Positions 10,654 to 50,783 of a DNA stretch of 64,000 nt are shown here, one piece after another. Under the pieces are notes generated by a model. It saw only the letters and a program-made list of their open reading frames with translations. It was not told the DNA's origin and ran no database searches. Both the position numbers and the translations under genes were made by a program. The first letter of the stretch is position 1. Every line of letters starts with the position of its first letter. Source of the DNA: Escherichia phage muut; sequence record NC_052657.1; one strand, written 5' to 3'.

Positions 10654-10671
10654 AAAGCTCCTAGTTGAATT

Positions 10672-11084: not shown

Positions 11085-11086
11085 GT

Positions 11087-11171
11087 TGGTGCAAGTGGAG
11101 GGATTCGAACCCTCAAGCATTTAAGCGTTGCGTTTTAAGCACAATGTGTATCACCAATTCCACCACACTTG
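11087..11171 (-). tRNA. tRNA-Leu (anticodon UAA)
   Basis: 85 nt type II; exact acceptor GCAAGTG/CACTTGC, anticodon arm TTGTG-CTTAAAA-CGCAA, T arm GAGGG-TTCGAAT-CCCTC, CCA. Confidence 0.65.
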
Positions 11172-11286
11172 CATATAGGAGATGCATAGCACCTCCTTTT
11201 AAATGGTGGTTCCCCAGGGTTACAATCCCTGCCCTCGACACTTATGAGGTGTGCGCTCTCGTCAGTGAGCTATGGAACCTTGAATA

Positions 11287-27723: not shown

Positions 27724-28287
27724 ATGGCTAAACTTTATTTCCGATATAGTCCAATGAACAGTGGTAAAAGCACACATCTTCTACAAACAGCTTGGAACTA
27801 TAAAGAAAGAAATATGAAAGTTCTTCTTTTAACTTCAGCTTTAGATACCAGATCTGGTTGTGCTATTGCTTCTAGGATAGGTATTAAAGAGGAAGCAAAA
27901 CCAGTTAAAACAAAAGAAGATATGCTGGAAATTTATACACAACTTAAAGAAAATCCAGTAGATGCAGTATTTGTGGACGAATCACAATTCCTAACTAAAG
28001 ATATGGTTGACATTCTTGGAGATGTGGTAGATAATTACGATATTCCTGTATTCTGTTATGGACTTAAAACAGATTTTGCTACAGAATTGTTTGAAGGTTC
28101 TGAACGGTTATTAGCCATAGCAGATTCAATTACAGAATTGAAAAGCATTTGTAAATGTGGAAGAAAAGCTATTTTCAATGCTAGACTTATCGACTCTAAA
28201 GAACAGATTGTTATTGGGGGAGAAGACATTTACGAAACAATGTGTAGAAAATGTTATAACAGGAGAAATAATGCGTCTAGTATGTGA
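27724..28287 (+). CDS. tdk: thymidine kinase
   Basis: Near-collinear with E. coli Tdk: P-loop MNSGKST, DESQFL, C-terminal zinc motif CKCGRKA...CRKCY. Confidence 0.9.
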   Translation: MAKLYFRYSPMNSGKSTHLLQTAWNYKERNMKVLLLTSALDTRSGCAIASRIGIKEEAKPVKTKEDMLEIYTQLKENPVDAVFVDESQFLTKDMVDILGDVVDNYDIPVFCYGLKTDFATELFEGSERLLAIADSITELKSICKCGRKAIFNARLIDSKEQIVIGGEDIYETMCRKCYNRRNNASSM

Positions 28288-28870: not shown

Positions 28871-29842
28871 ATGACAAACTCTATTTCAGCAAAAATTATT
28901 GCACACTCTCAAACATCTGAAGGTAAGGATATTGTTACCTTTGAACTTGAATATCCTCGAATCATTCACTCTGAATTGATGACGCATCGTTTGTTTTCTC
29001 GTAATGCCGCATCAAGTCGAGCTATCCCTGTTAAAACTCTAATTGAAATGGTACGGCAATCTCCCGCACGTCCTTATCGTTTTGGTGCTAACCAACCAGG
29101 TATGCAAGATAAAGGCACAGATCACGATGCCCTGATTGATGCAGGTTACACTGCAAAAGAATGGTGGGACTTGGCTGCGCTAAGTGCTGCACGTTTTGCA
29201 GAAGAGTTTGCCCTTGCTGGTTATCATAAACAGGTTGCAAACCGCCTACTAGAACCATTCCAGCGTATGAAGACTGTAGTAACCACTACAGAGCTAGAAA
29301 ACTTCTTGTGGTTGCGCGTAGATGCTGATGCAGATCCTACTATTGAGGCTCTTGCTAAAGAAATTAAAAAACTGTATGAATCTTCTGAACCATATCTTCT
29401 TTTCCCAGGGGAATGGCATACACCTTACGTTAATCGTGATCGAGATCCAGAAACTGGTATGATCCGTTATTTCTTGGGTGAAACCTTCTCCAACGAGAAA
29501 ATGTTGACAGAAGAGGAAGCAAAAGCTATTTCAGCTTCTTGTTGCGCTCAGGTAAGTTATCGTAAATTGAATGATACTAAAGATAAAGCATTGGATATCT
29601 ATTCTCGTTTGCTGTCTGGACAAAAGGTACATGCATCTCCGTTTGAACACCAGGCAACACCAATGAAAGAAATGGATTTGTCAGGATTAAAACAACAGAA
29701 AGGTGGTATTAATATTCCTCCGTTCCCTACTTCTTGGGAAGAAGGTATTACACACATGGATCGTAAACATCGTTTGTGGAGTGGAAACTTCTGTGGTTGG
29801 ATTCAACATCGTCAACTTTTGACTAACCATACAAAATGGTGA
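28871..29842 (+). CDS. thyX: flavin-dependent thymidylate synthase
   Basis: ThyX signature RHRLFSRNAASSRAIP (RHRxxSxxxxSxR). Confidence 0.85.
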   Translation: MTNSISAKIIAHSQTSEGKDIVTFELEYPRIIHSELMTHRLFSRNAASSRAIPVKTLIEMVRQSPARPYRFGANQPGMQDKGTDHDALIDAGYTAKEWWDLAALSAARFAEEFALAGYHKQVANRLLEPFQRMKTVVTTTELENFLWLRVDADADPTIEALAKEIKKLYESSEPYLLFPGEWHTPYVNRDRDPETGMIRYFLGETFSNEKMLTEEEAKAISASCCAQVSYRKLNDTKDKALDIYSRLLSGQKVHASPFEHQATPMKEMDLSGLKQQKGGINIPPFPTSWEEGITHMDRKHRLWSGNFCGWIQHRQLLTNHTKW

Positions 29843-30622: not shown

Positions 30623-32884
30623 GTGACTCAGTATCTAAGCAAATCTATCCGTTATGTAACAAAAACAAACGGCAAGAAAGAAGAATTTAATCCAGAAAAA
30701 CTTCGTAAATGGTCAGAGTTTGCTGCTGGTAAATTAAATTGGTCTGAAATTGAACTCGAAGCTGTTAAACGTTGTTACGACGGTGTGCCTACTCGTGATT
30801 TACATAAAGCTATGATAGCAGCATGTATTGATAAGAAAGATCAGGCATATAGTGATATGGCAGGTCGGTTACTTCTTGGTATGATTTATAAACAGGCTCA
30901 TGGGGGATATCACAATATCCCCTCCCTCCTGGATTTCTACAATATGTCTGTAAGTAAAGGCTATTGGGGAAAAATGGATTATACAGAAGAAGAAATTATT
31001 GAGATTGGTAAAATTGTCAATCACGATAAAAACCTAACTTATGGTTATTCCGTACTGCGCCAGATGGTTGATAAGTATCTTGTGAAAGATGCGATCAATG
31101 ATGTTGTTTTTGAATCACCACAGTTTTTATTCATTGGTGTAGCAATGAAGGTAATGGAAATTCAACCAAAAGATCGCAGAGTAGAAGACATTAAACGTCT
31201 ATATACCTACGTAAGTGATCTTAAGATTAATTTACCATCACCTTATTTAACAACGTTGCGTACTAAGATTAAAGGTAGTGCTTCTTGTTGTCTGTTTAGA
31301 GCAGATGATACAGCAGAATCTTTAGCAATTGCTAACTATCTTGCTCATGAATATACATTGAATAATGCAGGTATTGGTGTTAACCTCCAAACCCGTGCTA
31401 CAGGACAAGGTGTTAAGAACAACCGTATCGTTCACGGTGGTCTTTTACCATATCTGAAATGGATGGAAACAAGTGTTGGAGCATCAAAACAAGCAAGCCG
31501 TGGTGGAAGTGCAACAGTAACGTTTACAATATTAGAACCTGATTTTGAAGATCTGGTACGTTTGAAAAACCCAACTACTGTTAGTGAAAAACGAGTAGAT
31601 AAACTTGATTACTCTATTGTAGTAAACAATGCTTTCCTGCGCCGTGCAGCAAAAGGTAAAGATTGGATGCTAGTCAGTTATGACGAAGCACCAGAACTCT
31701 ATGATGCGCTTTATAAAAGCGAGGAAGAGTTTGAAGAAGTATATGAAAAAGTTAGTCGCAAACGAATTAAGAAAAAGTTTGTAAAAGCACGAGATCTTCT
31801 GGCAGAAATTATTACACAAAGAGCAGAGACAGGACGTATTTATATGTTCTTTGCGGATAATGCTAATAAGCATACTCCGTTTAAGGATGTTATTTATCAG
31901 TCAAACTTGTGCCAAGAAATTTTCTTACCTACGAAAGCATTTCACAGTATGACTGATCTTTTCACAGGTGAGAATACAGAAGATCAAGAATTGGCATTAT
32001 GCTTCCTGTCTTCTATTGTAGCTGGTCGTGTTACACCAGAAGAATATGAAGATGTTGCATATTATACCGTTCTAACTATTGATAATGTTATTGAAACAAT
32101 GCAGTATCCGTTTAAACATAACGAAATCACTGCTAAAGCACGTAGGTCTATCGGTGTAGGTATTACAAACCTGGCACATTATCTGGCAAGTAATTTTGTT
32201 ACTTATTCAGATCCTTACGGCAAAAAACTAATTCACGAATTAGCAGAAAGACATTATTACTGGTTAGCAAGAGCTTCTCTTCGTTTGGCAAAAGAGAAAG
32301 GTAATGCAGAATGGATGCATAAAACCAAATGGCCTGAAGGATGGTTGCCTATTGATACCTACGCTAAAGCTGTAGACGATATTGGCAATTTTAAACTTAA
32401 AATGGATTGGGAAGGTTTACGACAAGATATCATTGCACAAGGTGGTATCCGAAATAGCGTATTAGCAGCTATTGCTCCAAATGAGTCCAGTAGTCTTGTA
32501 AGTAATACGACTAACTCTGTGTATCCTGTACGTGATACTATAGTTTATAAACAAAGCCAAAAGGGTAATGTTCTGTTTATTGTGCCAGACTACGATAAAC
32601 TAAAAGATATTTACCAATCGGCTTGGGATACACCAGATAAAGATATGGCTGAAGCATATGGACTGTTGACTAAATTCTTAGATCAAGGTGCATCATGTGA
32701 TAAGTGGATTGACTATTCTAAGATGGAAGGTGGTCGTTTATCCATTAAATCAGAAATGCAATATATTCTTCAGTTTGCAAAACTTGGTGGTAAATCTTTG
32801 TACTATCTAAATAGCAGAACAAAATCGGCAACCTCACTCGCTCAAGAGGATGAAGAATCCGGTTGTGAGGCTTGTAAGATGTAA
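30623..32884 (+). CDS. nrdA: ribonucleotide reductase class Ia large subunit
   Basis: 753 aa; N-terminal ATP-cone-like region; active-site NLCQEI; GTG start with AGGAGAGG RBS. Confidence 0.85.
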   Translation: MTQYLSKSIRYVTKTNGKKEEFNPEKLRKWSEFAAGKLNWSEIELEAVKRCYDGVPTRDLHKAMIAACIDKKDQAYSDMAGRLLLGMIYKQAHGGYHNIPSLLDFYNMSVSKGYWGKMDYTEEEIIEIGKIVNHDKNLTYGYSVLRQMVDKYLVKDAINDVVFESPQFLFIGVAMKVMEIQPKDRRVEDIKRLYTYVSDLKINLPSPYLTTLRTKIKGSASCCLFRADDTAESLAIANYLAHEYTLNNAGIGVNLQTRATGQGVKNNRIVHGGLLPYLKWMETSVGASKQASRGGSATVTFTILEPDFEDLVRLKNPTTVSEKRVDKLDYSIVVNNAFLRRAAKGKDWMLVSYDEAPELYDALYKSEEEFEEVYEKVSRKRIKKKFVKARDLLAEIITQRAETGRIYMFFADNANKHTPFKDVIYQSNLCQEIFLPTKAFHSMTDLFTGENTEDQELALCFLSSIVAGRVTPEEYEDVAYYTVLTIDNVIETMQYPFKHNEITAKARRSIGVGITNLAHYLASNFVTYSDPYGKKLIHELAERHYYWLARASLRLAKEKGNAEWMHKTKWPEGWLPIDTYAKAVDDIGNFKLKMDWEGLRQDIIAQGGIRNSVLAAIAPNESSSLVSNTTNSVYPVRDTIVYKQSQKGNVLFIVPDYDKLKDIYQSAWDTPDKDMAEAYGLLTKFLDQGASCDKWIDYSKMEGGRLSIKSEMQYILQFAKLGGKSLYYLNSRTKSATSLAQEDEESGCEACKM

Positions 32885-32924: not shown

Positions 32925-33260
32925 ATGCCTACATTAGTTGTATTACCTGGGGCAACACCACAAAGACGCTGGGGAAATTATACACTGGTAGATAGTAAAG
33001 ATTTTACATTCGATTGGTGTTGTCATTATATTGCAGGTTTTCAATTTTCCAGTGTTGAAATATGGGCTTCCAATGATCCCATAGCTACCTGGTATGCTTT
33101 AACCAGAGCAAGGTATGAGGGAGAGGTTACTATACTACTCACAAAGAGTGTATGGGACGCATTAGAGAAGGCTTACCTAGAGGATGGTATGGAGAGAGAA
33201 CACATTGATACAATAAAAGCAATGTGTGATATTGTGGAGGATTTAAATGGCAGCAATTAA
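32925..33260 (+). CDS. hypothetical protein (111 aa)
   Basis: Start reset to ATG 32925 (AAGGAGG RBS) so that terminator hairpin is not translated. Confidence 0.4.
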   Translation: MPTLVVLPGATPQRRWGNYTLVDSKDFTFDWCCHYIAGFQFSSVEIWASNDPIATWYALTRARYEGEVTILLTKSVWDALEKAYLEDGMEREHIDTIKAMCDIVEDLNGSN

Positions 33261-34332
33261 CTTATACAACGACACTTACAAAGAAGGTTTCTACCCTGTA
33301 TTTTTGGGAGAACAGTTAGGTATTTTTGATTCTATTAATGTAACATACCCAGAAATGCATCGTCTGTACAAACTACAAAAACAGCAAGATTGGGATGAAA
33401 ACGAAGTAAACTTAGATCAGACACGAAAAGATTTCGTAGCTTGTTCTAAAAGCAACTATGATGTTATGATCAAAAACCTATCCTTCCAATGGGAAAATGA
33501 TTCACTTGCTAAATCAATCATCACTTTGTTTGCACCATTTTTAAGCAACAACGAAGCATGTGCAATGATGATGAAGCAATCAGAAATGGAAGTTTTACAC
33601 GCTTTGACATATTCTGAAATTATTCGTCAGTGTATCCCTAATCCAAATGAAGTTATCGATCAGATTATGGAGAATGAAAGAATCTTCCAGAGGATGGGTA
33701 TAGTTGAAGAGATAATGAGTGATCTGGCAGAGGCAGGACATAAATATGCTCTAGGTCTGATTGAGAAGGATGATAACCTTCGTCTACTGATTCTGAAAGG
33801 AATGATTGCACTTATCGGTCTGGAAGGCATTCAATTCATATCATCTTTTGCTGCAACATTTGCCTTAGCAGAGCAGCAACTGTTTGTAGGTGCAGCTAAA
33901 CTCATTCAAAAAATTATGTTGGATGAACTATTGCACGTTAAAATGGATTATGCTATTATTGATGCACTGCTGAAAGATCCTGTCTGGAGAAAAGTATACG
34001 AAGATAATATCGACGTTCTGACAGAAATTCTTGACACAGTAGTTGGACAAGAGGAAGATTGGTGTGACTATCTGTTTAGTGAAGGAAGGATTATCGTTGG
34101 TGGTAACGCAGAGTTGTTCAAACTTTGGGTTTACTTCAATGCTGCGCCTATCTATCGCAGACTGAAAATGAAACACAAATTCCGTGCACCGAAGAAAAGT
34201 CCACTACCTTGGATGGATGTTTGGTTAAATCCAGATCAAATTCAAGCAGCAGCACAGGAGATCCAAATTACAGCTTACAAACTGAATTCAGCAAATAAAG
34301 ACGTAAGTGATGACGAGGAGTTAGACTTTTAA
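33247..34332 (+). CDS. nrdB: ribonucleotide reductase class Ia small subunit
   Basis: 361 aa with ExxH iron-ligand motifs (EVLHALTYSE, ELLHVKMDY); adjacent to nrdA. Confidence 0.8.
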   Translation: MAAINLYNDTYKEGFYPVFLGEQLGIFDSINVTYPEMHRLYKLQKQQDWDENEVNLDQTRKDFVACSKSNYDVMIKNLSFQWENDSLAKSIITLFAPFLSNNEACAMMMKQSEMEVLHALTYSEIIRQCIPNPNEVIDQIMENERIFQRMGIVEEIMSDLAEAGHKYALGLIEKDDNLRLLILKGMIALIGLEGIQFISSFAATFALAEQQLFVGAAKLIQKIMLDELLHVKMDYAIIDALLKDPVWRKVYEDNIDVLTEILDTVVGQEEDWCDYLFSEGRIIVGGNAELFKLWVYFNAAPIYRRLKMKHKFRAPKKSPLPWMDVWLNPDQIQAAAQEIQITAYKLNSANKDVSDDEELDF

Positions 34333-34550
34333 TGAAACTACTTTGTGTTGGATTAATTTCTGACTTCAAAGACGTTTTCGAAAAGGGAGCCTCTTATGAG
34401 GCTTCCGAATTACAGAATGGTTTCTGTGATGTTTACGGTAAACGTTTAAAAAAGAATGGTGATCATTGGCTAGGAGTTATGTCTTGCGGTCACATTATAG
34501 TTAATGGTGTAGCCAAGTTTGAAATTATCAAAGGAGAAAAAGATGATTGA
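34332..34550 (+). CDS. hypothetical protein (72 aa)
   Basis: Track ORF. Confidence 0.4.
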   Translation: MKLLCVGLISDFKDVFEKGASYEASELQNGFCDVYGKRLKKNGDHWLGVMSCGHIIVNGVAKFEIIKGEKDD

Positions 34551-34725
34551 TTTTGTTGATGTAGATATTAATTCTGACTTAACAGAAGATGAAGGTGGCG
34601 CTTTTGTGTGTTCAGATGGGGAAAAATGTTTTACTCTGATGGTAGAAACTTATGATGGTATCACAGAAATTCTGTTAACAGAGAATGAGTTAAAACAGAT
34701 GTTAGAAAAGATTGAGGAGCTTTAA
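34519..34725 (+). CDS. hypothetical protein (68 aa)
   Basis: Track ORF. Confidence 0.4.
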   Translation: MKLSKEKKMIDFVDVDINSDLTEDEGGAFVCSDGEKCFTLMVETYDGITEILLTENELKQMLEKIEEL

Positions 34726-34726
34726 T

Positions 34727-34867
34727 AATGGATGATGTAAGTATTTGTCCTATCTGCGGCGGCACTGGGAATTTTATTGTTAGTATGGAACAATTTATTC
34801 CTTGTTGGAATTGTAACGGCTTAGGTTTCGTTCATACAGAAGAAAAAGAAGAAGAGGAAGATAGTGG
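34727..34867 (+). CDS. small zinc-ribbon protein (46 aa)
   Basis: Sub-cutoff ORF with GAGGAG RBS; CPICGG...CWNCNG. Confidence 0.4.
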
Positions 34868-35190
34868 GAGTTGATATTGCATGGCGTATGTTACAGGGTG
34901 CACCTTTTAATAAATGGGAAGAGGCTGTAGGAGAAGATCCTAGAATTGAAGAAGAATTTGATGGAGATTTTAATTGGTTCTTACAAGAAGGTCTTGATTT
35001 AAGCCGTATCTCACCTTTCTATGACGCTGATGCATCTTATTGCATATATGGGATTTATTTAGAAGGTGGCGAAGGAAGTATAGCTGTAGATCTTGAGCAA
35101 CTAAATAAGAATGCAAAAGAAGCCTACGCACAACTTCTTGAAAAATATAACATTGAAACGGAAACTATTATTTCTCAACACGTTTGGTAA
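34864..35190 (+). CDS. hypothetical protein (108 aa)
   Basis: Track ORF. Confidence 0.4.
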   Translation: MGVDIAWRMLQGAPFNKWEEAVGEDPRIEEEFDGDFNWFLQEGLDLSRISPFYDADASYCIYGIYLEGGEGSIAVDLEQLNKNAKEAYAQLLEKYNIETETIISQHVW

Positions 35191-35203
35191 GGAGGATAGT
35201 AGA

Positions 35204-35401
35204 ATGATGCTAGATCAACTGATCAATGCTCCTCGCGTAACAGTAAGTCCAAAAACATTTGCATCACTTTTAGAAGATGCTAGAGAGGTTTATAACTTTA
35301 CTGAAGAAGAGCTTCCTGTTCCTGTTAAAAAAGGTTCCAGATGGTTGTTTTATGAAGGTATTATTTTTACTGAAGGGAATAATTGGAAGGAGACTAAATG
35401 A
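35204..35401 (+). CDS. hypothetical protein (65 aa)
   Basis: Start reset to ATG 35204 (AAGGAGG RBS). Confidence 0.4.
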   Translation: MMLDQLINAPRVTVSPKTFASLLEDAREVYNFTEEELPVPVKKGSRWLFYEGIIFTEGNNWKETK

Positions 35402-36387
35402 AATACTTAGTAACAGGTGGTTTAGGCTTTATTGGAAGTGCGGTAGTTCGTTTCCTGGCTAAAAACACTAAGAATGATATTTACGTTATAGATAAATGGG
35501 GTTACGCTTCAGACCCTAGAAATTTATCAGAAACACCTAATGTAAAGTTTTGTCGTGTTGACTTGACAAATGCTCAGTTAACTGCTAAGATTGTGGCAGA
35601 TGTTAATCCAGATTATATAATGCATCTTGCAGCAGAAAGTCACGTAGATAATTCAATAGCATCACCGAGTGTTTTTATAAATTCAAATATTGTTGGAACA
35701 TTTAATCTTCTAGAAGCTGTTCGTTTAATGGGAGATAAATCAAATCTTAAAATGTTTCATCATATTTCAACAGATGAAGTGTATGGTGATCTGGAAGAAG
35801 GGGATTATCCGTTTACAGAACAGAATCCTTATAAGCCAAGTAGTCCATATGCTGCATCTAAGGCAGCAAGCGATCATTTGGTAAGAGCGTGGCATCGTAC
35901 TTATGGTATTCCGACAGTTATAACAAATTGTTCAAATAATTTTGGAGCGTATCATCATCCAGAAAAACTAATACCTAAAACGATAACAAATATTTTGATG
36001 CATAAACCAATCCCTGTTTATGGCAATGGTCTTCAAGTAAGAGATTGGTTATACGTTGACGATCACGCAGAAGCATTACACCTAGTAGTAACTAAAGGCA
36101 AATCTGGAGAAACATATAATATTGGGAGCAGAAACCCTAGAACTAATATTGATGTAATCTATATGATTTGTGATTATATGGATGCGGTGTATCCATCTGA
36201 AACAGATGCTTGTAGCCTCATTGAGATGGTTACAGATAGGCCTGGGCATGATTTAAGATATGAAGTGAATCCTTATAAGATTGAAAAGGAATTAGGGTGG
36301 AAAGCTAAAGGCACATTTGAAGAAAAACTTTATTCAACCATTGATTGGTATGTAGATAACAAAGAGTGGTGGGAAAATAAAGTTTAA
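35398..36387 (+). CDS. rmlB: dTDP-glucose 4,6-dehydratase
   Basis: GGLGFIGS Rossmann motif, [10 protein letters not shown] (YxxxK), [22 protein letters not shown]; collinear with E. coli RffG/RmlB. Confidence 0.9.
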
Positions 36388-36395
36388 GGAGGAGT

Positions 36396-37265
36396 ATGAA
36401 AGGTATTATCTTAGCAGGTGGTAGTGGAACAAGACTTTACCCAGTTACTAAAGGGGTTAGTAAACAACTATTACCAATTTACGATAAACCTATGATTTAT
36501 TATCCACTCTCTGTCCTAATGCTTTCTGGAATTAGGGAAATACTAATAATTACGACACCAGAAGATCAAATTAATTTTGTAAATCTTCTAGGTGATGGTT
36601 CTTCTTTTGGTATTTCCCTACAGTATGCAATACAGGACAACCCAAAAGGTTTAGCAGAAGCGTTTATTATTGGTGAGAGCTTTATTGGTGAAGATTCTGT
36701 AGCACTTGTTCTAGGTGATAATTTGTTCTTTGGTCAGAGTTTTGGTAGCATTTTAGATTCTGCTAAAGAACATATTGAAAAGAATGGTGGAGCTAATATT
36801 TTTGGGTATCACGTAAATGATCCTGAAAGATTTGGTGTTGTTGAGTTTGATTCTGAAGGTACAGTGGTAAGTATTGAAGAAAAACCAAAAGCACCAAAAA
36901 GCAATTATGCAATTACAGGCTTGTACTTTTACGATAATTCTGTTATACAGAAAGCTAAAAGCGTTAAACCTTCTGCTAGAGGGGAATTAGAGATCACAGA
37001 TATAAATGAGATGTACTGGAAAGAAAAGACTTTACGTGTCTGTAAACTAGGAAGAGGTTTCACTTGGCTGGATACAGGAACACATGAAAGTCTTATGGAA
37101 GCATCTCAATTTGTTCATGCAATAGAAAAGCAACAAGGTATGAAGGTTGCATGCCTGGAAGAGATTGCTTTTAAAAATGAATGGATTACTTTAGACTCTG
37201 TAAAAAGTTCTGGAGAGGTTTTAAGTAAAACAGACTACGGTAAGTATTTACTTAAATTAAAATAA
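36396..37265 (+). CDS. rmlA: glucose-1-phosphate thymidylyltransferase
   Basis: [17 protein letters not shown]...[17 protein letters not shown] nearly identical to RmlA N-terminus. Confidence 0.9.
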
Positions 37266-37277
37266 AGGGGGAATTAA

Positions 37278-37832
37278 ATGATTCAAGCAACAAAAATCGA
37301 AGATTTGTTGATCATTCAACCTGACGTTTACGGAGATGAACGTGGTTTTTTCTTAGAAAGTTTTAATCAGGCTTTATATGATCAATACATAGGTAAACAA
37401 AACTTTGTCCAAGATAACCATTCACGTTCTATTCGAGGAGTTCTACGTGGGCTTCATTTTCAAAAGAAAAACCCACAAGGGAAGTTAGTACGTTGTGTTC
37501 GTGGTGAAGTTTATGATGTTGCTGTAGATATTAGGGTTGATAGTCCAACATTTGGAGAATGGGTAGGTGTTCTCTTATCTGAAAAGAATAAAACACAATT
37601 TTGGATTCCTCCTGGTTTCGCTCATGGCTTTGTTGTGATTAGTGACATTGCTGATTTTGAATATAAATGTACAGAATATTACGATCCGACTTCAGAGTGT
37701 AGTCTTGCGTGGAATGATCCAGATATCAATATTGATTGGGGTTTTGATTTAATCTTTAATGATATTAATTTTAAACCTATCTTGTCACAAAAAGATCAGG
37801 AAGCCAAAACACTAAAGGAGATCATATTTTGA
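37278..37832 (+). CDS. rmlC: dTDP-4-dehydrorhamnose 3,5-epimerase
   Basis: YGDERGFFLESF and RGLHFQ cupin motifs typical of RmlC. Confidence 0.85.
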   Translation: MIQATKIEDLLIIQPDVYGDERGFFLESFNQALYDQYIGKQNFVQDNHSRSIRGVLRGLHFQKKNPQGKLVRCVRGEVYDVAVDIRVDSPTFGEWVGVLLSEKNKTQFWIPPGFAHGFVVISDIADFEYKCTEYYDPTSECSLAWNDPDINIDWGFDLIFNDINFKPILSQKDQEAKTLKEIIF

Positions 37833-38659
37833 CAAAATTTTTAATCTTTGGTTCAAAAGGTCAATTAGGACAATCTTTGGCAAAAGTTGCACCAGAAGAT
37901 GTTATTTTGATTGAAGCAAGTGATATAGACATTACCAACTTTAAAGATGTTATGAATAGTCTTGTACAGCACGTGCCTGATGTTGTTGTGAATTGTGCGG
38001 CTTACACGGCAGTAGATAAAGCTGAAGAAGATGTTAACACCTGTATAAATGTTAATGCATACGGTGCAACAAACATTGCCAAAGCATGTAATGATTTACT
38101 GATACAGTTTGTACATATTTCAACAGACTATGTTTTTGATGGGCATGTTGCTGGCACAGAAGATAGTAAAACAAACCCCTTGAACACCTACGGTTACAGT
38201 AAACAATTAGGTGAAACTTTAGTACAAACAGTTTGTCCTACAGCACTTATTATCAGAACAGCTTCTGTTTATAGTGAATTTGGACATAACTTTTTGAAAA
38301 CTATGTTGGAACGCTACAACGGTGGTCAAAAAGAATTTAATGTAGTATGTGATCATTTATCATGTCCTACTTATGCACCTGATCTTGCAGAAACAATTTT
38401 TAAACTTGTAAAAGATGGTGTAAATAGTAAAATTGTACACTATGCAGGTGCAGATTATATTTCTTGGTATGATTTTGCACGAAAGATATTTCTTGTTATA
38501 GATTTATCTGTTACAGTTAATCCTGTATCTGCTTCAACCTATAATTCCAAAGCAGTCAGACCAGCAACATCTTATTTAAAAACAGATCCTACTTTAAATC
38601 CGCGAAGTGTTGATAGCGGTATTGTAAGAACTTTAACTATACTTTTAAACAAGGAGTGA
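37829..38659 (+). CDS. rmlD: dTDP-4-dehydrorhamnose reductase
   Basis: N-terminal IFGSKGQLG Rossmann motif, STDYVFDG; completes rmlBACD order. Confidence 0.8.
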   Translation: MTKFLIFGSKGQLGQSLAKVAPEDVILIEASDIDITNFKDVMNSLVQHVPDVVVNCAAYTAVDKAEEDVNTCINVNAYGATNIAKACNDLLIQFVHISTDYVFDGHVAGTEDSKTNPLNTYGYSKQLGETLVQTVCPTALIIRTASVYSEFGHNFLKTMLERYNGGQKEFNVVCDHLSCPTYAPDLAETIFKLVKDGVNSKIVHYAGADYISWYDFARKIFLVIDLSVTVNPVSASTYNSKAVRPATSYLKTDPTLNPRSVDSGIVRTLTILLNKE

Positions 38660-38922
38660 AAATGAATTTTATTATCTACGGTAAACCAAATTGTCCTTTC
38701 TGCACTAACGCTAAGATTCTACTAGAACAGCGTGAACAGGATTTTAAATACCTTACCTTAGATGAAGACTATTCTTTAGATCAGATTCAGACTCTGGTCT
38801 TAGAGAAAACAGGTGTTCTACCACGTACATTTCCTCAGATTTTTGTGGAAGATGGTGAACAGCTAACCCACGTAGGAGGTTTTTCTGAACTACGTGAATT
38901 CATGGCTCAGATTGCGGAGTAA
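38656..38922 (+). CDS. glutaredoxin / NrdH-like redoxin
   Basis: 88 aa with CPFC active site. Confidence 0.65.
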   Translation: MKMNFIIYGKPNCPFCTNAKILLEQREQDFKYLTLDEDYSLDQIQTLVLEKTGVLPRTFPQIFVEDGEQLTHVGGFSELREFMAQIAE

Positions 38923-39082: not shown

Positions 39083-39583
39083 ATGGCTAAAGTAGTTGAT
39101 GTGTTTGATATGTTACGTTTTGATGAAGGACTAAAGCTAACTGTATATCCTGATACCGAAGGGTATTGGACAGTTGGTATTGGACACCTTCTGACAAAAC
39201 TCAAAGATAAAGCAGAAGCTATACGTATTCTTGATAACTTAGTAGGTAGAAAAACCAATGGGGTTATTACTGAAGCGGAAGCTAGAAGAATCTTTGAGAG
39301 TGACGTAAAGAAAGCGATACAACAAATCCATTCAAGTGCCATATTATCTCCTATTTACGATAAAGTAAGTCCTAATCGTAAAATGGCTATTATTAATATG
39401 GTATTTCAAATGGGATTGAAAGGTGCAGAATCTTTCAAAAATAGCTTGACTTTAGTGAGTAATTCATATTATACTCAAGCCTCTATAAATTTACGTAAAA
39501 GTAAATGGTATCGCCAAACGCCTAATCGCGCAGAGCGTGTAATTCAGGTACTTAAAACTGGAACATTAGACGCTTATAACTAA
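39083..39583 (+). CDS. e: T4-type lysozyme (endolysin, GH24)
   Basis: Collinear with T4 lysozyme: DEGLKLTVYPDTEGYWTVGIGHLL with catalytic E/D/T. Confidence 0.9.
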   Translation: MAKVVDVFDMLRFDEGLKLTVYPDTEGYWTVGIGHLLTKLKDKAEAIRILDNLVGRKTNGVITEAEARRIFESDVKKAIQQIHSSAILSPIYDKVSPNRKMAIINMVFQMGLKGAESFKNSLTLVSNSYYTQASINLRKSKWYRQTPNRAERVIQVLKTGTLDAYN

Positions 39584-39621: not shown

Positions 39622-40374
39622 ATGGGAAATAAAACCGCAAAGGCTCGTCGTCAATCAGCAGCCAATGATGACAAACGTGCCAGTCGTTATGCGGCTAAAG
39701 CAGTAGGAAATGATGATTACCGTCTTGATGAATTTACCCCTGTTGGGAATCAAGAAGCTATTGTAAGAAGCATGGTTTGGAATGATTTAACCATTGTTAA
39801 TGCCCCAGCAGGAACAGGAAAAACGACAACAGCACTATGGAAAGCATTGCAAATGCTTAAAGCTGGTGATTTCAGAAAGTTGATTTTCCTTAAAAACCCG
39901 ACAGAAGTAGGTGATGATCAAATTGGTTTCTTATCTGGAGATAAGACTGATAAACTAGCAGCACATTACGAATCAACTAAAAGAATTTTCCAACAGTTTA
40001 TGACTGCAAATAAATTGGAAAACGATATTGCAAGTGGCAAAATTGAACTTAATATTCCAAACTATGCACTAGGTGCTACGTGGGATAACAGCATTATTCT
40101 TATTGATGAAGTTCAACTTATGTCACCAAATACAGTAAAACTTCTCCTTGAGCGAGCAGGTCTTAATACACGTATTGTCATTATGGGTGATGTTAATCAA
40201 ACATATGCAATTAAACGAAGAGCTAATGGGTTAGGTGATTTGTTAGATCGTGTTGTTCCTATTAACGAAGAAGGAGAAAGGGAAGCTATTGTAGATTTTA
40301 TTGGTTATGTTGAAATGACAACTGCTGATAACCAACGTTCCCGTTTGTCTCAGTTCATCACGGAAGTATATTAA
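39622..40374 (+). CDS. phoH: PhoH-like ATPase
   Basis: Walker A NAPAGTGKTT and Walker B-like IILIDEVQ. Confidence 0.8.
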   Translation: MGNKTAKARRQSAANDDKRASRYAAKAVGNDDYRLDEFTPVGNQEAIVRSMVWNDLTIVNAPAGTGKTTTALWKALQMLKAGDFRKLIFLKNPTEVGDDQIGFLSGDKTDKLAAHYESTKRIFQQFMTANKLENDIASGKIELNIPNYALGATWDNSIILIDEVQLMSPNTVKLLLERAGLNTRIVIMGDVNQTYAIKRRANGLGDLLDRVVPINEEGEREAIVDFIGYVEMTTADNQRSRLSQFITEVY

Positions 40375-40410: not shown

Positions 40411-40902
40411 ATGACGCTAATTGAGATTGATCGCAATGGTATTGATGAATGCTATCAAGCTGGCTTAGTTAAGCCGAATGAGTTTAGACAGATTTATATT
40501 GACAAGATTGAAAAAGAAATATCTCTTCGTTTAGAGAACATGGCAACTTTGCAAAAAGTTCAGATGTTTTTTAGTTGGTTGAAAGGAGAGGATTGGCTAA
40601 CTAAATATTACCAGGAATTATCTGATAGTCAAGAAGGCTTGTTTGAGTGTATAATAAATGTAGCTGGGTCTAATTCAGAGTTACTCCTGATTGATGAAGA
40701 AGATTCTAAACTTCTTTTTCTTAGCAGTATTTTTCACAAGAAATCTATGTTAGTAAGAAATTGCAGTGATTTACTAAATCATCCACTAACAAGAACTAAT
40801 AAAATTCTTGTGGATAAAGAAACACTAAGAGCTATTGATTACCTCCGTAAATATGTAAGCGGTGGTAAAGCAGTCCTTAAAACACTACAGGAGGAAGTAT
40901 AA
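40411..40902 (+). CDS. hypothetical protein (163 aa)
   Basis: Track ORF. Confidence 0.45.
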   Translation: MTLIEIDRNGIDECYQAGLVKPNEFRQIYIDKIEKEISLRLENMATLQKVQMFFSWLKGEDWLTKYYQELSDSQEGLFECIINVAGSNSELLLIDEEDSKLLFLSSIFHKKSMLVRNCSDLLNHPLTRTNKILVDKETLRAIDYLRKYVSGGKAVLKTLQEEV

Positions 40903-41555
40903 TGACAACAATTATTGCAACACGTAACAAAATTTTGTCTGACGGTAAGGTAACAGTAGGTAGTCGTGTAGACACTTTAAACTTCAAGAAAGTGCGTAAA
41001 ATTGGGGACTACCTTGTTGGTGGTGCAGGACGTCTGTCTTCTATCCTGACTTTCTTTTCTTGGTTTGAACAAAACTTACAATGCCAGGCAGCACAAGAGA
41101 CAATCCCAGGTTTGGTGATCCAGTCAGATCCCGATAAAGAAGATGAAGAGTTTGTGGCATTGGTTGTTCATCCAGACGGTAAAATTTATATGCACGAGGG
41201 TAATAATCCAACGCGAGCATATCCTTTAACTGAAGATTATTATGCTGTTGGTAGTGGGGCAGATTTTGCTTTAGCAGCTTTAGATGCAGGGGCAACTCCA
41301 GAAGAAGCGATGGAAGTTGCAAAACTGCGAGATGCTTTTTCCGGCGGTGAAACTTTTATCGAAGAGATCGAAGAACAACTGGAGTTAACAGCGGAAGATA
41401 TTCTGAACTTCAGCAAGGAGCAACTAATTAGTATGCTGTTGACTGGTGATCCTGATAGCGATGAAGCTGAAAGTATTTTAGCAGAAATGAAAGAATCACA
41501 AGAAAAAGTATTGACAGTCTCTGAAAAACTTGATAAAGTGTCCTCTGATAATTAA
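40902..41555 (+). CDS. HslV-like Ntn-hydrolase peptidase with acidic C-terminal extension
   Basis: N-terminus MTTIIATR (Thr2 nucleophile), KKVRKIGDYLVGGAGR and YAVGSGADFALAALDAG parallel E. coli HslV. Confidence 0.5.
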   Translation: MTTIIATRNKILSDGKVTVGSRVDTLNFKKVRKIGDYLVGGAGRLSSILTFFSWFEQNLQCQAAQETIPGLVIQSDPDKEDEEFVALVVHPDGKIYMHEGNNPTRAYPLTEDYYAVGSGADFALAALDAGATPEEAMEVAKLRDAFSGGETFIEEIEEQLELTAEDILNFSKEQLISMLLTGDPDSDEAESILAEMKESQEKVLTVSEKLDKVSSDN

Positions 41556-41595: not shown

Positions 41596-42024
41596 ATGTT
41601 ACCAGTACCTGTAACCTTTGTAGAAAAAGCCTACTACTCTTTAGAACAAAACTGTAAAAGAGCTAAAAATTTTATTGAAAGTTTAGCAGAACAGCGTTAC
41701 ACTGTATCTAAAAAGGGATGGTTCAGAACTTCACAATATTCAGTCAACCCTTTCGGAGAAGTTCGTGTGTTGTACGGCAACACAGAAAATATCTTAGAAA
41801 GAATGTTAGAACTAGATAGGATCTCCTCCTGTGATTATCAACTGTTGAAATTTTACGATGTGTCAGAAAACATTAAAAACTTTCTTGACGATTTATGTAA
41901 ACGAAAAACAGAAGAAGATACAATACCAGTATCTATGGAAGAATTAACGTTCTTAAGAGATATTATGGTTTTTGAAGAAAACCCTGAAATCACAAAAGAG
42001 GAGATTTTAAGTAGTGGCAAATAA
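41596..42024 (+). CDS. hypothetical protein (142 aa)
   Basis: Track ORF. Confidence 0.45.
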   Translation: MLPVPVTFVEKAYYSLEQNCKRAKNFIESLAEQRYTVSKKGWFRTSQYSVNPFGEVRVLYGNTENILERMLELDRISSCDYQLLKFYDVSENIKNFLDDLCKRKTEEDTIPVSMEELTFLRDIMVFEENPEITKEEILSSGK

Positions 42025-42523
42025 GTATGATCGTCCACCAACTGATTACTATCCTACTCCACAAAAATGTATAAATGCATTATTTAGTGTAATAGATTTT
42101 AATAACCTTAAAGAAGAAGGTTTTATTTTTGCAGAACCGTGTAAAGGCGCTGCTGCTGCAATTTATCAACATTTTCCAGAAGGATCAGAATATTGTGAGT
42201 TAGAAGAAGGGAAGGATTATTTTAACCACGAATGGCATACTAAGCCGGATATTATAATCACAAATCCACCATTCAGACTTGCACTTGAGTTCTTGCAAAA
42301 GAGCTTAAAAGAAGCAGACGTTTGCATATACTTGTTGCGTCTTGGGTTCCTAGAGTCTATTAAACGAAGGGAATTCCATAAACAGAACCCACCAACAAAT
42401 TTGATTGTTCTTTCTGAACGACCATCTTTTGTTGCAGGTGGTACTGATAAGACAGCATATGCTTGGTACGTCTACGACCCAAAAAACAGGCTGGGTTTAA
42501 CTCAACCTTTCTATTTTGTTTAA
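42014..42523 (+). CDS. small phage-type N6-adenine DNA methyltransferase (tentative)
   Basis: YYPTP near N-terminus and catalytic IITNPPF motif; GTG start. Confidence 0.5.
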   Translation: MANKYDRPPTDYYPTPQKCINALFSVIDFNNLKEEGFIFAEPCKGAAAAIYQHFPEGSEYCELEEGKDYFNHEWHTKPDIIITNPPFRLALEFLQKSLKEADVCIYLLRLGFLESIKRREFHKQNPPTNLIVLSERPSFVAGGTDKTAYAWYVYDPKNRLGLTQPFYFV

Positions 42524-43027: not shown

Positions 43028-43690
43028 ATGAAGTTTGTACTGTATCATCGACTTTCTAAGAAGAAACAACAAGGCAACCAGTATGGTATAGAATCACAGG
43101 AAGCAGATATCCAACGCTTCCTGGATTCACAAGAAAATTATACTATTGTAGGTAGCTTTGCAGAGTTTTATTCTGGTAAAGGCGATTGGAAGCAACGTAG
43201 AGAGCTTGTAAAAGCTGTTAATCTTTGCAAAGAAACAGGTGCTACACTTGTTGTTGCTAAGGTTGACCGTCTTGGACGTAACACAGCTTCTGTTGCAACC
43301 TTGTTAGAGATGATTAATGTACGGATAGCCACTATGCCCTCCGCTGAAAATATGATAATAAATATTTTAGCAGTTCTGGCAGAAGAAGAGGCTCGTGCAA
43401 TATCTGATCGTGTTAAGAAGAGCCTTAAGGTAGCAAAAGCGAAGGGAACGCTTCTTGGTGCAGCAAACCCTAAATACAAAAGAACAGATTATACGAAAAC
43501 GGAAGAAGCAAAACGCTCAAAAGAGTTTGCACTTTCTTTAAAAGATTCTTTAGTTGCATACAGAGCTTGTAAAACGCCATATATGACGATTGCAAAGCAT
43601 CTGAATGAATCAGGAAAGAGAACTATTCGTGGGAGTTTGTTCGATGCCAAAGCGGTACAACGTCTTTGTGCAAAATTGAATATTAAATAA
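43028..43690 (+). CDS. serine recombinase (resolvase/invertase family)
   Basis: N-terminal YHRLSKKKQ (catalytic Ser), VVAKVDRLGRN, C-terminal HTH-like region. Confidence 0.7.
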   Translation: MKFVLYHRLSKKKQQGNQYGIESQEADIQRFLDSQENYTIVGSFAEFYSGKGDWKQRRELVKAVNLCKETGATLVVAKVDRLGRNTASVATLLEMINVRIATMPSAENMIINILAVLAEEEARAISDRVKKSLKVAKAKGTLLGAANPKYKRTDYTKTEEAKRSKEFALSLKDSLVAYRACKTPYMTIAKHLNESGKRTIRGSLFDAKAVQRLCAKLNIK

Positions 43691-47733: not shown

Positions 47734-48723
47734 ATGAAAGTTTTAAGTCTTTTTGATGGTATGTCAGGAGGAATGCTTGCGCTAAAAAGTGCAGGTATTG
47801 AAGTAGATACATATTACGCTTCAGAATTAGACAAATTTGCCGTAGCTGAAAGCCAAGCAAATTTTCCAGATATTATTCAGTTAGGTGATGTTACAAAATG
47901 GAGAGAATGGGATATCCCGTGGGGAGAAATTGATCTTTTGTTAGGTGGTAGTCCGTGTCAAGGCTTCTCTTCTTCTGGTAAGGGTTTGAACTTTCAAGAT
48001 CCGCGATCTAAGTTATTCTTCGAATATGTTGAAATTCTTGAACATATTAAAAAGTTTAATCCTAATGTTAAGTTCATGCTTGAAAACGTTAAGATGAAAG
48101 TGGAGTGGGAAAACGTGATCACAAGTTACTTAGGTGTTGATCCCGTATTCATTAACTCCGCAGATTTCACGGCACAGAATAGACAACGTTTATACTGGTG
48201 CAACTGGGAAATAAAACCCTGGGAGATTACCAATGAAGTGTTGCAAGATATCATTGAAGATGATAGTATTGTAGACAGAGATAAGGCTTATTGCATAGAT
48301 GCAAATTATGCCAAAGGTGGTAATATAGAACAGTATTTTGAAAAGAGTCGCAGACAACTGGTTTTTTATCCGGCAGCAATATATGGGCGTAGAATTAATG
48401 AAAATGGCAAACGTAGTACATCTAAAACTGATCGTTTGGTACATTGTTTGGAAGTTCAGGACAGTGAAAAAACTCGTTGCCTCACGACTGTGCCTAAAGA
48501 CGTACTATTAGCCTACATTCCACCTGGAAGATATCTAGATGCTTTTGAAAAATTGAGTGAAGGCGTACATTATAGAAAGTTAACGGTTAAAGAGTGTTGC
48601 CGCTTGCAAGGTGTGCCAGATGATTACTTTAAAGTGAGTAGTAACACACAAGCATATAAGATGTTAGGTAACGGTTGGACTATACCTGTCATTGCACATA
48701 TTCTTAAATGTATGGAGGAATAG
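47734..48723 (+). CDS. dcm: DNA (cytosine-5)-methyltransferase
   Basis: Motif I LFDGMSGG, PC motif GGSPCQGFS, ENV motif (FMLENV). Confidence 0.8.
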   Translation: MKVLSLFDGMSGGMLALKSAGIEVDTYYASELDKFAVAESQANFPDIIQLGDVTKWREWDIPWGEIDLLLGGSPCQGFSSSGKGLNFQDPRSKLFFEYVEILEHIKKFNPNVKFMLENVKMKVEWENVITSYLGVDPVFINSADFTAQNRQRLYWCNWEIKPWEITNEVLQDIIEDDSIVDRDKAYCIDANYAKGGNIEQYFEKSRRQLVFYPAAIYGRRINENGKRSTSKTDRLVHCLEVQDSEKTRCLTTVPKDVLLAYIPPGRYLDAFEKLSEGVHYRKLTVKECCRLQGVPDDYFKVSSNTQAYKMLGNGWTIPVIAHILKCMEE

Positions 48724-49512: not shown

Positions 49513-50046
49513 ATGGGTTTTGATGACATGTTATTATATGAGGAGGCTTGTGTGAAAGAAGCTATGGCTTTACCAGTTTTATCTATTGATATTACAACAG
49601 TAGACACTTTTTCAGATTGTGAAACGTGTGGATCGTATTCGTCTATTGTACATGAAGTTAGTGGGGATTTAGGCACTTACGAAGATGGAGATTATGCAAG
49701 TTGTTTAGGTGATAATCGAGATGGTGAAGTGGCGAATGTTGCAAACTGGATTGCTTCTAAGTTAAAAGAAAGAAATCGTCCGTTCCCTAATCTTCTTACA
49801 CCAGAAGCTATGCTTAAAGCTGAACAAGAGATGTATGATTATGGTTATAAAGTAGATTATGACTATAATGATCCTAAATATAAAAAATTGAGTGACAAGT
49901 ATTGGGAACTAGCTAATGCTTATGATAAATACTACTCTACAGAAAACATTGTTAAATTGTTTTTAGATTTTGGAGTAGAAATTAATTGGGATTTCGAAGA
50001 GGAAGAGCGTTACGACGCATCTTCTTGGGAGGACGAGGGTGAATGA
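49513..50046 (+). CDS. hypothetical acidic protein
   Basis: Start reset to ATG 49513 (GGAGGA RBS). Confidence 0.4.
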   Translation: MGFDDMLLYEEACVKEAMALPVLSIDITTVDTFSDCETCGSYSSIVHEVSGDLGTYEDGDYASCLGDNRDGEVANVANWIASKLKERNRPFPNLLTPEAMLKAEQEMYDYGYKVDYDYNDPKYKKLSDKYWELANAYDKYYSTENIVKLFLDFGVEINWDFEEEERYDASSWEDEGE

Positions 50047-50783
50047 TAGAACGAAAACCCTTACCAGATAGAGATTACTTGTTATCAAGGTTTAGTGTGG
50101 AGAATGGTCGTCTTGTTTGGAAACCTAAACCTTCTACAACAAAAGAGAACAAAAGGTGGAATAGCAGATACGCAGGGAAGATTGCAGGGACTATTGATAA
50201 AGCTGGTTACTCTCATGTCAAAATAGATGGTATTGTATACTTGGAGCACAGAGTTTGTTTTAAAATGTATCATAATTACTGTCCAGATGTTATAGACCAT
50301 GATGACGGCAATAAACTTAATAATGCGGAAAGTAATTTATTGGATAGTAACTATTTATTAAATAATAACAATAGACACGTGGATGGGTTAGAAGGTATTT
50401 ATGAAAAGGATGGTGTTTTTCTTTGGGTTATAAACTACAACCAAGAAACTTTCTCTGTTTCAGGTTTCAAAACTAAAGAGGAAGCTATTGTAGCTAGAGC
50501 TTTAGCAAAACAAGAAATTTTGAAAGGATCTTATATCAAAAAAGAAAAGAAGCGTATAGATAACACTTCAGGATTAAGCTGTGTGTTTGTGGCAACAAGA
50601 GAGAGAACATTCTTTTTCAAGTTTGTGTTTGACAAGATCACGTATTGCAAATATGGTTTCAACGATCCAGAGAGATGTGCTATAGCTCTGGAGAAACTAA
50701 GATTGAAGGTGATGAAAGAAAAATATAAACCTGCAAATAAAAGCATTTGCGAAAAATATAAGGAGGAGATTTATGCCGCGTAG
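50043..50783 (+). CDS. HNH homing endonuclease with AP2-like DNA-binding domain
   Basis: HNH motif VIDHDDGNKLNNAESNL; downstream SGFKTKEEAIVARALA AP2-like segment. Confidence 0.65.
   Translation: MIERKPLPDRDYLLSRFSVENGRLVWKPKPSTTKENKRWNSRYAGKIAGTIDKAGYSHVKIDGIVYLEHRVCFKMYHNYCPDVIDHDDGNKLNNAESNLLDSNYLLNNNNRHVDGLEGIYEKDGVFLWVINYNQETFSVSGFKTKEEAIVARALAKQEILKGSYIKKEKKRIDNTSGLSCVFVATRERTFFFKFVFDKITYCKYGFNDPERCAIALEKLRLKVMKEKYKPANKSICEKYKEEIYAA

Follow-up and report, generated by a model that had tools for sequence, protein, structure and literature searches.

A complete predicted dTDP-L-rhamnose pathway in Escherichia phage muut and a conserved glycosyltransferase module that may use its product

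Introduction

What would a virulent, broad-host-range coliphage do with an activated rhamnose of its own? Escherichia phage muut raises this question: the window analysed here—a stretch of 64,000 nucleotides from sequence record NC_052657.1—contains four consecutive genes, rmlB, rmlA, rmlC and rmlD, that are predicted to encode the synthesis of deoxythymidine diphosphate-L-rhamnose (dTDP-L-rhamnose) and that lie among genes of nucleotide metabolism. The genes themselves are ordinary and already annotated; what calls for explanation is the use made of their product.

Both the cassette and its main interpretation, as a DNA modification system, are already in print, and the muut window adds another member. 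Olsen et al. (2020) reported this pathway at the same locus, called it ‘peculiar’ within the DNA-metabolism region and proposed that hydroxymethylated nucleotides are rhamnosylated (PMC7552041). Maffei et al. (2021) found phi92-like phages of the BASEL collection ‘exceptionally susceptible’ to restriction-modification systems even though a dTDP glycosylation machinery is predicted for them, and described recognition of enterobacterial common antigen (ECA) and other surface glycans by these phages (PMC8594841). Isolates of this group stem from studies on lytic coliphages (PMC7552041; PMC8594841). Our literature search found no paper that tests the function of the phage rml pathway.

Here, we combine profile, structure and genome comparisons to propose, with a probability of about 0.4, that the cassette provides a supply of dTDP-L-rhamnose independent of host serotype for a conserved glycosyltransferase module, which most probably decorates virion proteins. 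Our confidence in the enzymology is much higher than that figure.

Results

Each Rml protein was compared over essentially its full length with solved Rml enzymes and scored against NCBIfam, where an Rml equivalog model was in every case the best match and its cut-off was exceeded: RmlB reached 442.5 bits with TIGR01181 (cut-off 365.1), RmlA 471 bits with TIGR01207 (360.65), RmlC 260.1 bits with TIGR01221 (155.75) and RmlD, by a narrow margin, 253.6 bits with TIGR01214 (224.05), some 23 C-terminal residues of RmlD lying outside the match. Pfam assignments were consistent with these (RmlB, PF16363 and PF01370; RmlA, PF00483; RmlC, PF00908; RmlD, PF04321). Residues 1–327 of RmlB align to Salmonella enterica RmlB (1g1a, E 7e-117), with the Rossmann motif GxxGxxG, the dehydratase Thr-Asp-Glu triad and YxxxK (YAASK) all kept. 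RmlA, a full-length short form with an intact GGSGTRLYP signature, aligns over residues 2–288 to its S. enterica counterpart (1iim, E 1.3e-124). RmlC aligns to the solved structure 1dzr (E 1.9e-64) and keeps the His of GLHFQ, the Lys of QGKLVRC and the Tyr of EYK; the catalytic Asp we take to be that of SQKD, read from sequence beyond the aligned block. RmlD keeps STDYVFDG and YGYSK (the Thr/Tyr/Lys triad), and its best match among solved structures is from Bacillus anthracis (3sc6, E 3.5e-44), ahead of S. enterica (1kbz, E 3e-35).

The assignment of the four genes to the RmlB, RmlA, RmlC and RmlD steps of dTDP-L-rhamnose synthesis is, as a prediction from protein sequence, secure, and the cassette as a complete predicted route from glucose-1-phosphate and deoxythymidine triphosphate (dTTP) to dTDP-L-rhamnose is fully supported. 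A sequence-only reading of this window had already claimed four consecutive Rml genes, which lie exactly where it placed them (Table 1), and had proposed profile searches, and both profile libraries return the Rml families. Its overall span of 35398–38922 needs trimming: the rml genes occupy 35398–38659, and the remainder takes in the glutaredoxin gene (grx), which belongs to the backbone of the nrd module and lies outside the sugar pathway.

Table 1. Positions and assignments of the genes discussed. Coordinates refer to the window unless another phage or locus (L) is named.
Feature	Position	Strand	Assignment or remarks
tRNA genes (15)	8242-11279	-	two tRNA-Met, two Leu, two Ser among them
NAPRTase-family gene	12026-13759	-	nicotinate phosphoribosyltransferase (NAPRTase)-family phosphoribosyltransferase, 577 aa
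PRPP-synthetase-like gene	13831-14724	-	phosphoribosyl pyrophosphate (PRPP)-synthetase-like protein
tdk	27724-28287		upstream of rml
ThyX-like gene	28871-29842	+	323 aa, upstream of rml
nrdA	30623-32884		upstream of rml
nrdB	33247-34332		upstream of rml
Small open reading frames (ORFs)	34332-35401	+	~48-108 aa, between nrdB and rmlB
rmlB	35398-36387	+	dTDP-D-glucose 4,6-dehydratase, 329 aa
rmlA	36396-37265	+	glucose-1-phosphate thymidylyltransferase, 289 aa
rmlC	37278-37832	+	dTDP-4-dehydrorhamnose 3,5-epimerase, 184 aa
rmlD	37829-38659	+	dTDP-4-dehydrorhamnose reductase, 276 aa, TTG start
grx	38662-38922	+	glutaredoxin
Lysozyme gene	39083-39583		downstream of grx
PhoH-like ATPase gene	39622-40374	+	downstream of lysozyme gene
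HslV/proteasome-like peptidase gene	40902-41555	+	downstream of lysozyme gene
Small ORF	42014-42523	+	faint adenine-methyltransferase match
Serine recombinase/resolvase-family gene	43028-43690	+
C5-cytosine DNA methyltransferase gene	47734-48723	+	PF00145, 1.7e-43
HNH-type ORF	50043-50783	+
Sir2-family gene	50773-51588	+
bas61_0046			314 aa; Pfam Glyco_trans_1_2, 26.8 bits vs 25, GT-B type; PHROG glycosyltransferase
bas61_0047			337 aa; 40% identical paralogue of bas61_0046; PHROG glycosyltransferase
bas61_0048			228 aa; no above-threshold Pfam match; PHROG glycosyltransferase; AlphaFold2 (AF2) model with predicted local distance difference test (pLDDT) 88 and predicted template modelling score (pTM) 0.87, GT-A fold
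bas61_0049			187 aa; no Pfam match; PHROG glycosyltransferase; AF2 model with pLDDT 93, minimal GT-A fold
phrog_4240 protein	EmilieFrey L002 44283-44552	-	homologues in L005, L006, KP13-26 and IMG/VR loci
Tellurite-type genes	EmilieFrey L003 418-6318; L006 1201-8331; L026 1362-2138; KP13-26 L013 21460-22440		conserved in distant relatives
Tail sheath gene	EmilieFrey L002 10170-11576; KP13-26 L012 37121-38527

A 4.8 kb query around the rml genes proved 99.6% identical to Escherichia phages ESCO9 and VEcB (Stephanstirmvirinae, Justusliebigvirus, phi92-like) and matched 130 phage records, 52 of which cover at least 80% of it; the four genes are already named in the annotations of matching records. 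EmilieFrey is 99.1% identical in the rml region. The cassette is kept in every Stephanstirmvirinae genome examined (in Klebsiella phage KP13-26 as rmlC and rmlD only), and phi92, phAPEC8 and other members share locus and gene order with muut, whose cassette is in no way different. Several records named ‘Campylobacter phage’, with Campylobacter jejuni as host (MG065639, MG065645, MG065656, MG065689 and others), are 98.6% identical to Escherichia coli Justusliebigvirus over the rml region, and other such records match Phapecoctavirus or Vequintavirus; their names or hosts look wrong, the sequences perhaps stemming from coliphages carried along.

In the muut window the rml genes form one tightly coupled operon between nrdAB and grx. 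The last of the small ORFs overlaps the rmlB start (ATGA), and a Shine-Dalgarno sequence, GGAG, precedes the rmlB ATG. The TTG start of rmlD—annotated likewise in VEcB—overlaps the rmlC stop and has AAGGAG 8 nt before it, and at the next junction AAGGAG, the rmlD TGA stop and the grx ATG follow one another, an arrangement of translational coupling. A scan found no + strand terminator-like site between 32907 and the end of the lysozyme gene, the promoter and terminator scan as a whole showing no enrichment relative to shuffles. The glutaredoxin (PF00462, E 1.7e-11; TIGR02181, 52.6 bits, under cut-off) probably starts at the ATG used in Table 1 rather than at a GTG at 38656, in agreement with the VEcB annotation. 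The small ORFs between nrdB and rmlB match the vecB_063–067 region of VEcB and gp162–165 of phAPEC8; Pfam returned no match for those at 34864–35190 and 35111–35401.

The context that the sequence-only reading had described, with tdk, thyX, nrdA and nrdB upstream and glutaredoxin and lysozyme genes downstream, was found as it said, save that its thyX needs qualifying. The product is of the ThyX family but divergent, scoring 35.5 bits with TIGR02170 (cut-off 87.9) and 36.9 bits with PF02511, of which it covers only part, and it has no match among PDB sequences. It carries THR...S.RA in place of RHR...S.RY, which we take to be the canonical motif. The gene is common to Vequintavirus and PVP-SE1-like phages.

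What this neighbourhood can say about function depends on how the cassette came to lie there. In Vequintavirus AlexBoehm the order is ThyX-like gene, nrdA, nrdB, grx, with grx starting 4 nt past nrdB; in Stephanstirmvirinae about 4.3 kb, made up of the small ORFs and the rml genes and not present in Vequintavirus, stands between nrdB and grx. Judged by gene order, the cassette is an insertion at the nrdB–grx junction relative to Vequintavirus. Since nrdB abuts grx there, location inside the nucleotide-metabolism operon guarantees co-expression and says little about function, and we give little weight to the sequence-only suggestion that a neighbourhood of deoxynucleoside triphosphate (dNTP) supply genes hints at the use of the sugar.

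The cassette appears to be old and under selection. At about 35%, the G+C content of the rml genes is like that of the rest of the window, and among 5,426 complete E. coli genomes none exceeds about 65% nucleotide identity to them; on these two counts recent capture from the host was ruled out. Amino-acid identity of the Rml proteins between Justusliebigvirus and phAPEC8 is 54–72%. The ratio of non-synonymous to synonymous substitution rates (dN/dS) between genera is 0.09–0.29 where dS is computable, several between-genus pairs being saturated for dS and the 3 nt differences within the genus being too few for an estimate. Phage RmlCs are the nearest relatives of one another, followed by RmlCs of Enterobacterales and Orbales at 63–69% identity. 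Separate acquisition in two genera, also considered, is unsupported: within the set examined, phAPEC8 RmlC is 61–65% identical to the phage proteins and 54–56% to bacterial RmlCs.

With bacterial RmlABCD/RfbBDAC systems (S. enterica, E. coli rfb) the phage cassette shares the four enzyme families, their catalytic motifs and full-length structural matches. It differs in being carried by a virulent phage, in having no adjacent O-antigen glycosyltransferase, wzx or wzy genes, in an RmlD closer to that of Firmicutes than to enteric RfbD, and in its order, which is B-A-C-D rather than the B-D-A-C of E. coli rfb; E. coli matches to the phage rml genes come in two pieces.

The Klebsiella relative suggests which part of the pathway matters most. 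KP13-26, of the same subfamily, carries RmlC (77% identity) and RmlD (60%) at the same site, and RmlA and RmlB are absent throughout its complete genome. Among the complete E. coli genomes, rmlB/A-like DNA occurred in all (5,426/5,426), at a median of two places each, and rmlC-like DNA in 2,213 (41%), a lower bound set by blastn sensitivity. The two places presumably represent rfb plus the rffG/rffH genes of ECA synthesis. The product of RmlA and RmlB, dTDP-4-keto-6-deoxyglucose, is also the precursor of the 4-acetamido-4,6-dideoxygalactose (Fuc4NAc) residue of ECA, by way of RffH/RffG, WecE and WecD. It is likely that every E. coli can supply this intermediate and that many cannot complete the rhamnose pathway. 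That all hosts make the RmlA/RmlB product and only some have RmlC and RmlD would account for the retention of rmlC–rmlD alone in the Klebsiella phage, and by this comparison these two genes are the non-redundant core of the cassette. The full phage pathway likely frees rhamnose supply from host serotype.

The sequence-only reading saw no glycosyltransferase in the window, which holds for the window ORFs that we scanned; the scan of the wider genome that it suggested turned up four such genes outside the window in the same genome type. In EmilieFrey, four putative glycosyltransferase genes (bas61_0046–bas61_0049, Table 1) adjoin primase/helicase and DNA polymerase genes; the depositors label them putative glycosyltransferases, the GT-B genes as RfaG-like or ‘disaccharide synthase’. 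The family of the 228-aa GT-A protein has an invariant Arg and invariant DDD and ED motifs, and that of the 187-aa protein an invariant D-x-D, the conserved acidic motifs of both being of DxD type. ESCO9 and VEcB carry the same four genes at 98–100% identity, and from these 99.6% identical relatives we infer that muut has the module too, outside the window.

A tblastn search placed the module in Justusliebigvirus, Phapecoctavirus and the Klebsiella lineage, the clades that also have RmlC, whereas the Vequintavirus match lists do not include it. Of the module, KP13-26 retains one GT-B (66%), the 187-aa protein (74%) and, at a different location, a GT-A (35%). In the large phages the gene for phrog_4240, a conserved protein of some 89 aa bearing an SDWDYYGG-like motif, always lies between the GT-B genes and primase/helicase. 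Sequence searches with the glycosyltransferases against the PDB gave no matches. Fold searches with the AF2 models returned GT-A folds at TM-scores of only 0.4–0.55, among which Listeria RmlT, a dTDP-rhamnose transferase, ranked no better than other GT-A enzymes, so that neither donor nor acceptor can be inferred from the fold. Just upstream of a cell-wall hydrolase gene and the glycosyltransferase module lie tellurite-resistance-type genes (TerC, TelA, a TerF-like vWA protein and TerD).

Copies of the module in distant phages sit in a different setting. Scanning IMG/VR with the GT-A alignment yielded 24 loci; GT-A adjoins GT-B in 21 of them, often with the 187-aa protein alongside. At two loci (L005 and L026) the 187-aa gene and GT-A are separated by an inserted short-chain dehydrogenase/reductase (SDR) gene, whose product matches dTDP-glucose 4,6-dehydratase best (171 bits, under cut-off; TDE and YxxxK kept); this links the module physically to 6-deoxyhexose synthesis. 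In smaller lambdoid-like phages the module lies away from replication genes: it stands 0.2–4 kb upstream of terminase and portal genes at L027, L031, L033 and L035–L037, and inside the tail module at L030. The commonest neighbour families are portal, small and large terminase, DUF2213 and Mu F, with NinG and antiterminator Q recurring; these neighbourhoods showed no ThyA, TET or methyltransferase enrichment and no rml genes. Of two distant homologues of the 187-aa gene, one (L038) is accompanied by GT2, polysaccharide deacetylase and two methyltransferase genes between terminase and portal/capsid genes, with a UDP-galactopyranose mutase gene upstream of terminase, and the other (L039) by GT-D-like, DegT aminotransferase, SDR and methyltransferase genes.

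Outside its own clade, the nearest relatives of the GT-A protein are glycosyltransferases of Cheoctovirus (E ~1e-7, about 26% identity over some 160 residues), and it matches phrog_1579 at 1e-10.

Among the remaining genes of the window, the PhoH-like ATPase and HslV/proteasome-like peptidase genes are both conserved in phAPEC8 and KP13-26. The NAPRTase-family, PRPP-synthetase-like and Sir2 genes look like a phage set for nicotinamide adenine dinucleotide (NAD+) salvage or counter-defence; EmilieFrey has macrodomain, phosphoribosyltransferase and HAD-like genes, and KP13-26 has NadR and PnuC. The tRNA genes lie between the lysis/terminase end and the NAD-salvage genes. The HNH-type ORF sits between the methyltransferase region and the Sir2 gene, and a serine recombinase or resolvase-family protein is present although the phage is virulent.

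Discussion

In the explanation that we favour, phage RmlA, RmlB, RmlC and RmlD would convert glucose-1-phosphate and dTTP into dTDP-L-rhamnose, which likely feeds the conserved module of a 187-aa mini GT-A, a 228-aa GT-A and one or two GT-Bs; this module would, tentatively, build a rhamnose-containing oligosaccharide on virion proteins rather than on DNA. The sequence-only suggestion that the sugar is used on a phage product is plausible and is strengthened by a glycosyltransferase module that co-occurs with rml, but of the three acceptors it named—a DNA base, the virion and the host surface polysaccharide—the DNA base is the least supported.

The structural-module context of the distant copies fits a virion-protein acceptor best. 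In Che8, a Cheoctovirus, capsid and tail tube are both glycosylated by the phage (Freeman et al. 2023, as cited in PMC12363180), and the mycobacteriophages Che8, Corndog and Myrna, covered by the same citation, encode GT-A enzymes. Distant copies of the module sit with methyltransferases and a deacetylase between terminase and portal/capsid genes; the phi92-type module of Stephanstirmvirinae adjoins replication genes. We know of no phage-encoded sugar-nucleotide pathway in the glycosylating mycobacteriophages. Chlorovirus and mimivirus, which are unrelated to phi92-like phages, also encode a 6-deoxyhexose pathway, that of rhamnose, together with glycosyltransferases, in their case for capsid or fibril glycans (PMC9614988; PMC7019647).

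The evidence for a virion acceptor is contextual and weak, and several observations weigh against it. In phages of the muut type neither locus belongs to a structural module: the glycosyltransferase genes adjoin those for primase/helicase and DNA polymerase, and rml is part of the nucleotide-metabolism operon. Homology to the mycobacteriophage enzymes is weak, and a GT-A fold reveals little of what an enzyme modifies. That rml and the module occur together in one subfamily may go back to one event in its ancestry. A candidate acceptor motif, the Ser/Asn-rich C-terminus of the tail sheath in EmilieFrey and KP13-26 (NSQNSNSSTVSS or SSSTTSNSSTTSS), was rejected: the phAPEC8 sheath has no Ser-rich tail, that of Vequintavirus ends differently, and the feature does not track the system. 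As a statement about the lineage—that these coliphages make their own dTDP-L-rhamnose and that a three-family module places a rhamnose oligosaccharide on their own virion proteins—the proposal is a tentative one, possible but short of an even chance.

Where else might the sugar go? Those gene positions, in a nucleotide-metabolism operon and beside primase and DNA polymerase, speak for transfer of rhamnose from dTDP-rhamnose by the phage glycosyltransferases to a hydroxylated DNA base, possibly only at sparse or sequence-specific sites. The GT-A protein is weakly and locally similar to TAGT (PF20691, E 6.8e-5, 23.3 bits) and to phrog_842 (5e-5 across some 40 residues), its conserved R...DDD...ED pattern is similar to a motif described for DNA GT-A enzymes, the window encodes a C5-cytosine methyltransferase, and known DNA glycans can be oligosaccharides built with phage-encoded sugar-nucleotide pathways (PMC13326640). 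Glycosylation of the T-even/RB69 type (alpha/beta-GT, TAGT, arabinosyl-5-hydroxycytosine) likewise combines phage glycosyltransferases, in some cases with a phage sugar-nucleotide pathway, and genes among nucleotide and replication functions (PMC13326640; 10.1101/2023.12.21.572611). Such systems, however, need a ThyA-homologue hydroxymethylase, a hydroxylase, or a methyltransferase with a TET-type dioxygenase, and no ThyA-type hydroxymethylase, 5-hydroxycytosine (5hoC) synthase or TET/JBP enzyme was found by Pfam in a non-exhaustive scan of the larger unknown proteins of the window and of EmilieFrey 1–100 kb. For the window, this agrees with the sequence-only reading, which saw no base hydroxymethylase there; dioxygenases, too, were not found by Pfam among these proteins, which gave one weak cupin_3 match (E 0.0024). 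The ThyX-like gene is also present in Vequintavirus, which is without rml and glycosyltransferases, and the C5 methyltransferase is missing from KP13-26, which keeps the system; a route by C5 methylation and oxidation was rejected on that ground. The TAGT similarity is local and below the cut-off of 27.5 bits, no Stephanstirmvirinae figure in a published list of viruses whose genomes encode TAGT/JGT-type GT-A homologues, and the distant modules have no enrichment of DNA-modifying neighbours. T-even/RB69-type DNA is restriction-resistant, whereas phi92-like phages are restriction-sensitive (PMC8594841). Bulk DNA modification is effectively excluded, and with no base-hydroxylating enzyme found and restriction sensitivity on record, the hypermodified base that the sequence-only reading put forward is disfavoured; even DNA glycosylation confined to sparse sites strikes us as quite improbable.

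Remodelling of the host envelope is less doubtful, though still unlikely. Here dTDP-4-keto-6-deoxyglucose would be diverted from the Fuc4NAc of ECA to dTDP-rhamnose, and the glycosyltransferases would act on undecaprenyl-linked or lipopolysaccharide acceptors, altering or shutting off the surface glycans that the phages bind; this could exclude superinfection or spare progeny from loss on debris. Surface glycans, ECA among them, are indeed recognised by these phages (PMC8594841), the ECA precursor would be consumed where RmlC and RmlD are the only pathway enzymes, as in KP13-26, the depositors’ GT-B labels (RfaG-like, ‘disaccharide synthase’) suit such a role, in PHROGs the glycosyltransferases fall into the category ‘moron, auxiliary metabolic gene and host takeover’, and the genes are positioned with early and middle functions. 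Yet the E. coli phages bring RmlA and RmlB as well, and these would raise the shared precursor rather than drain it, which implies demand rather than diversion, and the late structural location in distant phages leaves little time for surface remodelling. Conversion by Gtr, Wzy or Oac involves a membrane component, polymerase or acetyltransferase, usually in a temperate phage; in these lytic phages, annotations and Pfam searches of the tested proteins revealed no flippase, polymerase, ligase, acetyltransferase or Gtr-type membrane component. We know of no precedent for such surface remodelling in virulent phages, which also counts against it. A non-virion target—a host or phage protein modified in the manner of EarP on EF-P, or else a small molecule, in aid of host takeover or counter-defence—seems a shade more improbable than sparse DNA glycosylation. 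Other bacteria use dTDP-L-rhamnose as the donor when they rhamnosylate arginine in proteins (PMC4471567), the glycosyltransferase genes lie among early/middle genes together with further host-directed functions (Sir2, NAD salvage and a macrodomain protein), and the phrog_4240 protein always comes next after the GT-B genes. Against this, no glycosyltransferase matched an EarP-like family at E < 0.1, three glycosyltransferase families suggest an oligosaccharide rather than a single regulatory sugar, and nothing positive points to any particular target. Least credible of all, and very improbable, is a purely metabolic role in which the pathway buffers or sinks dTTP and glucose-1-phosphate beside the dNTP-supply genes, with no dedicated acceptor. 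Co-location and co-transcription of rml with tdk, the ThyX-like gene, nrdAB and grx would suit it, as would an effect of RmlA perturbation on the dNTP pool reported in mycobacteria (PMC8870461), but the position is explained by insertion at nrdB–grx, the pathway runs on through the RmlC and RmlD steps—pointing to demand for the end product—and co-occurs with glycosyltransferases, and the Klebsiella relative keeps only RmlC and RmlD, neither of which touches dTTP.

Rhamnose routes of giant viruses are of eukaryote type rather than the bacterial dTDP route through RmlABCD, and glycosylation of virion proteins in Stephanstirmvirinae would be, as far as we know, the first self-sufficient system in a tailed phage of Gram-negative bacteria. 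phi92, phAPEC8 and BASEL phages Bas60–62 are used as models and therapy candidates. A sparse DNA glycan, if that were the true product, would bear on evasion of host defences. If the virion is decorated as we propose, the glycan coat would bear on stability, pharmacokinetics and antibody recognition, and in these multivalent, glycan-binding phages it might affect the stability of the particle, its recognition by the immune system or its self-adsorption.

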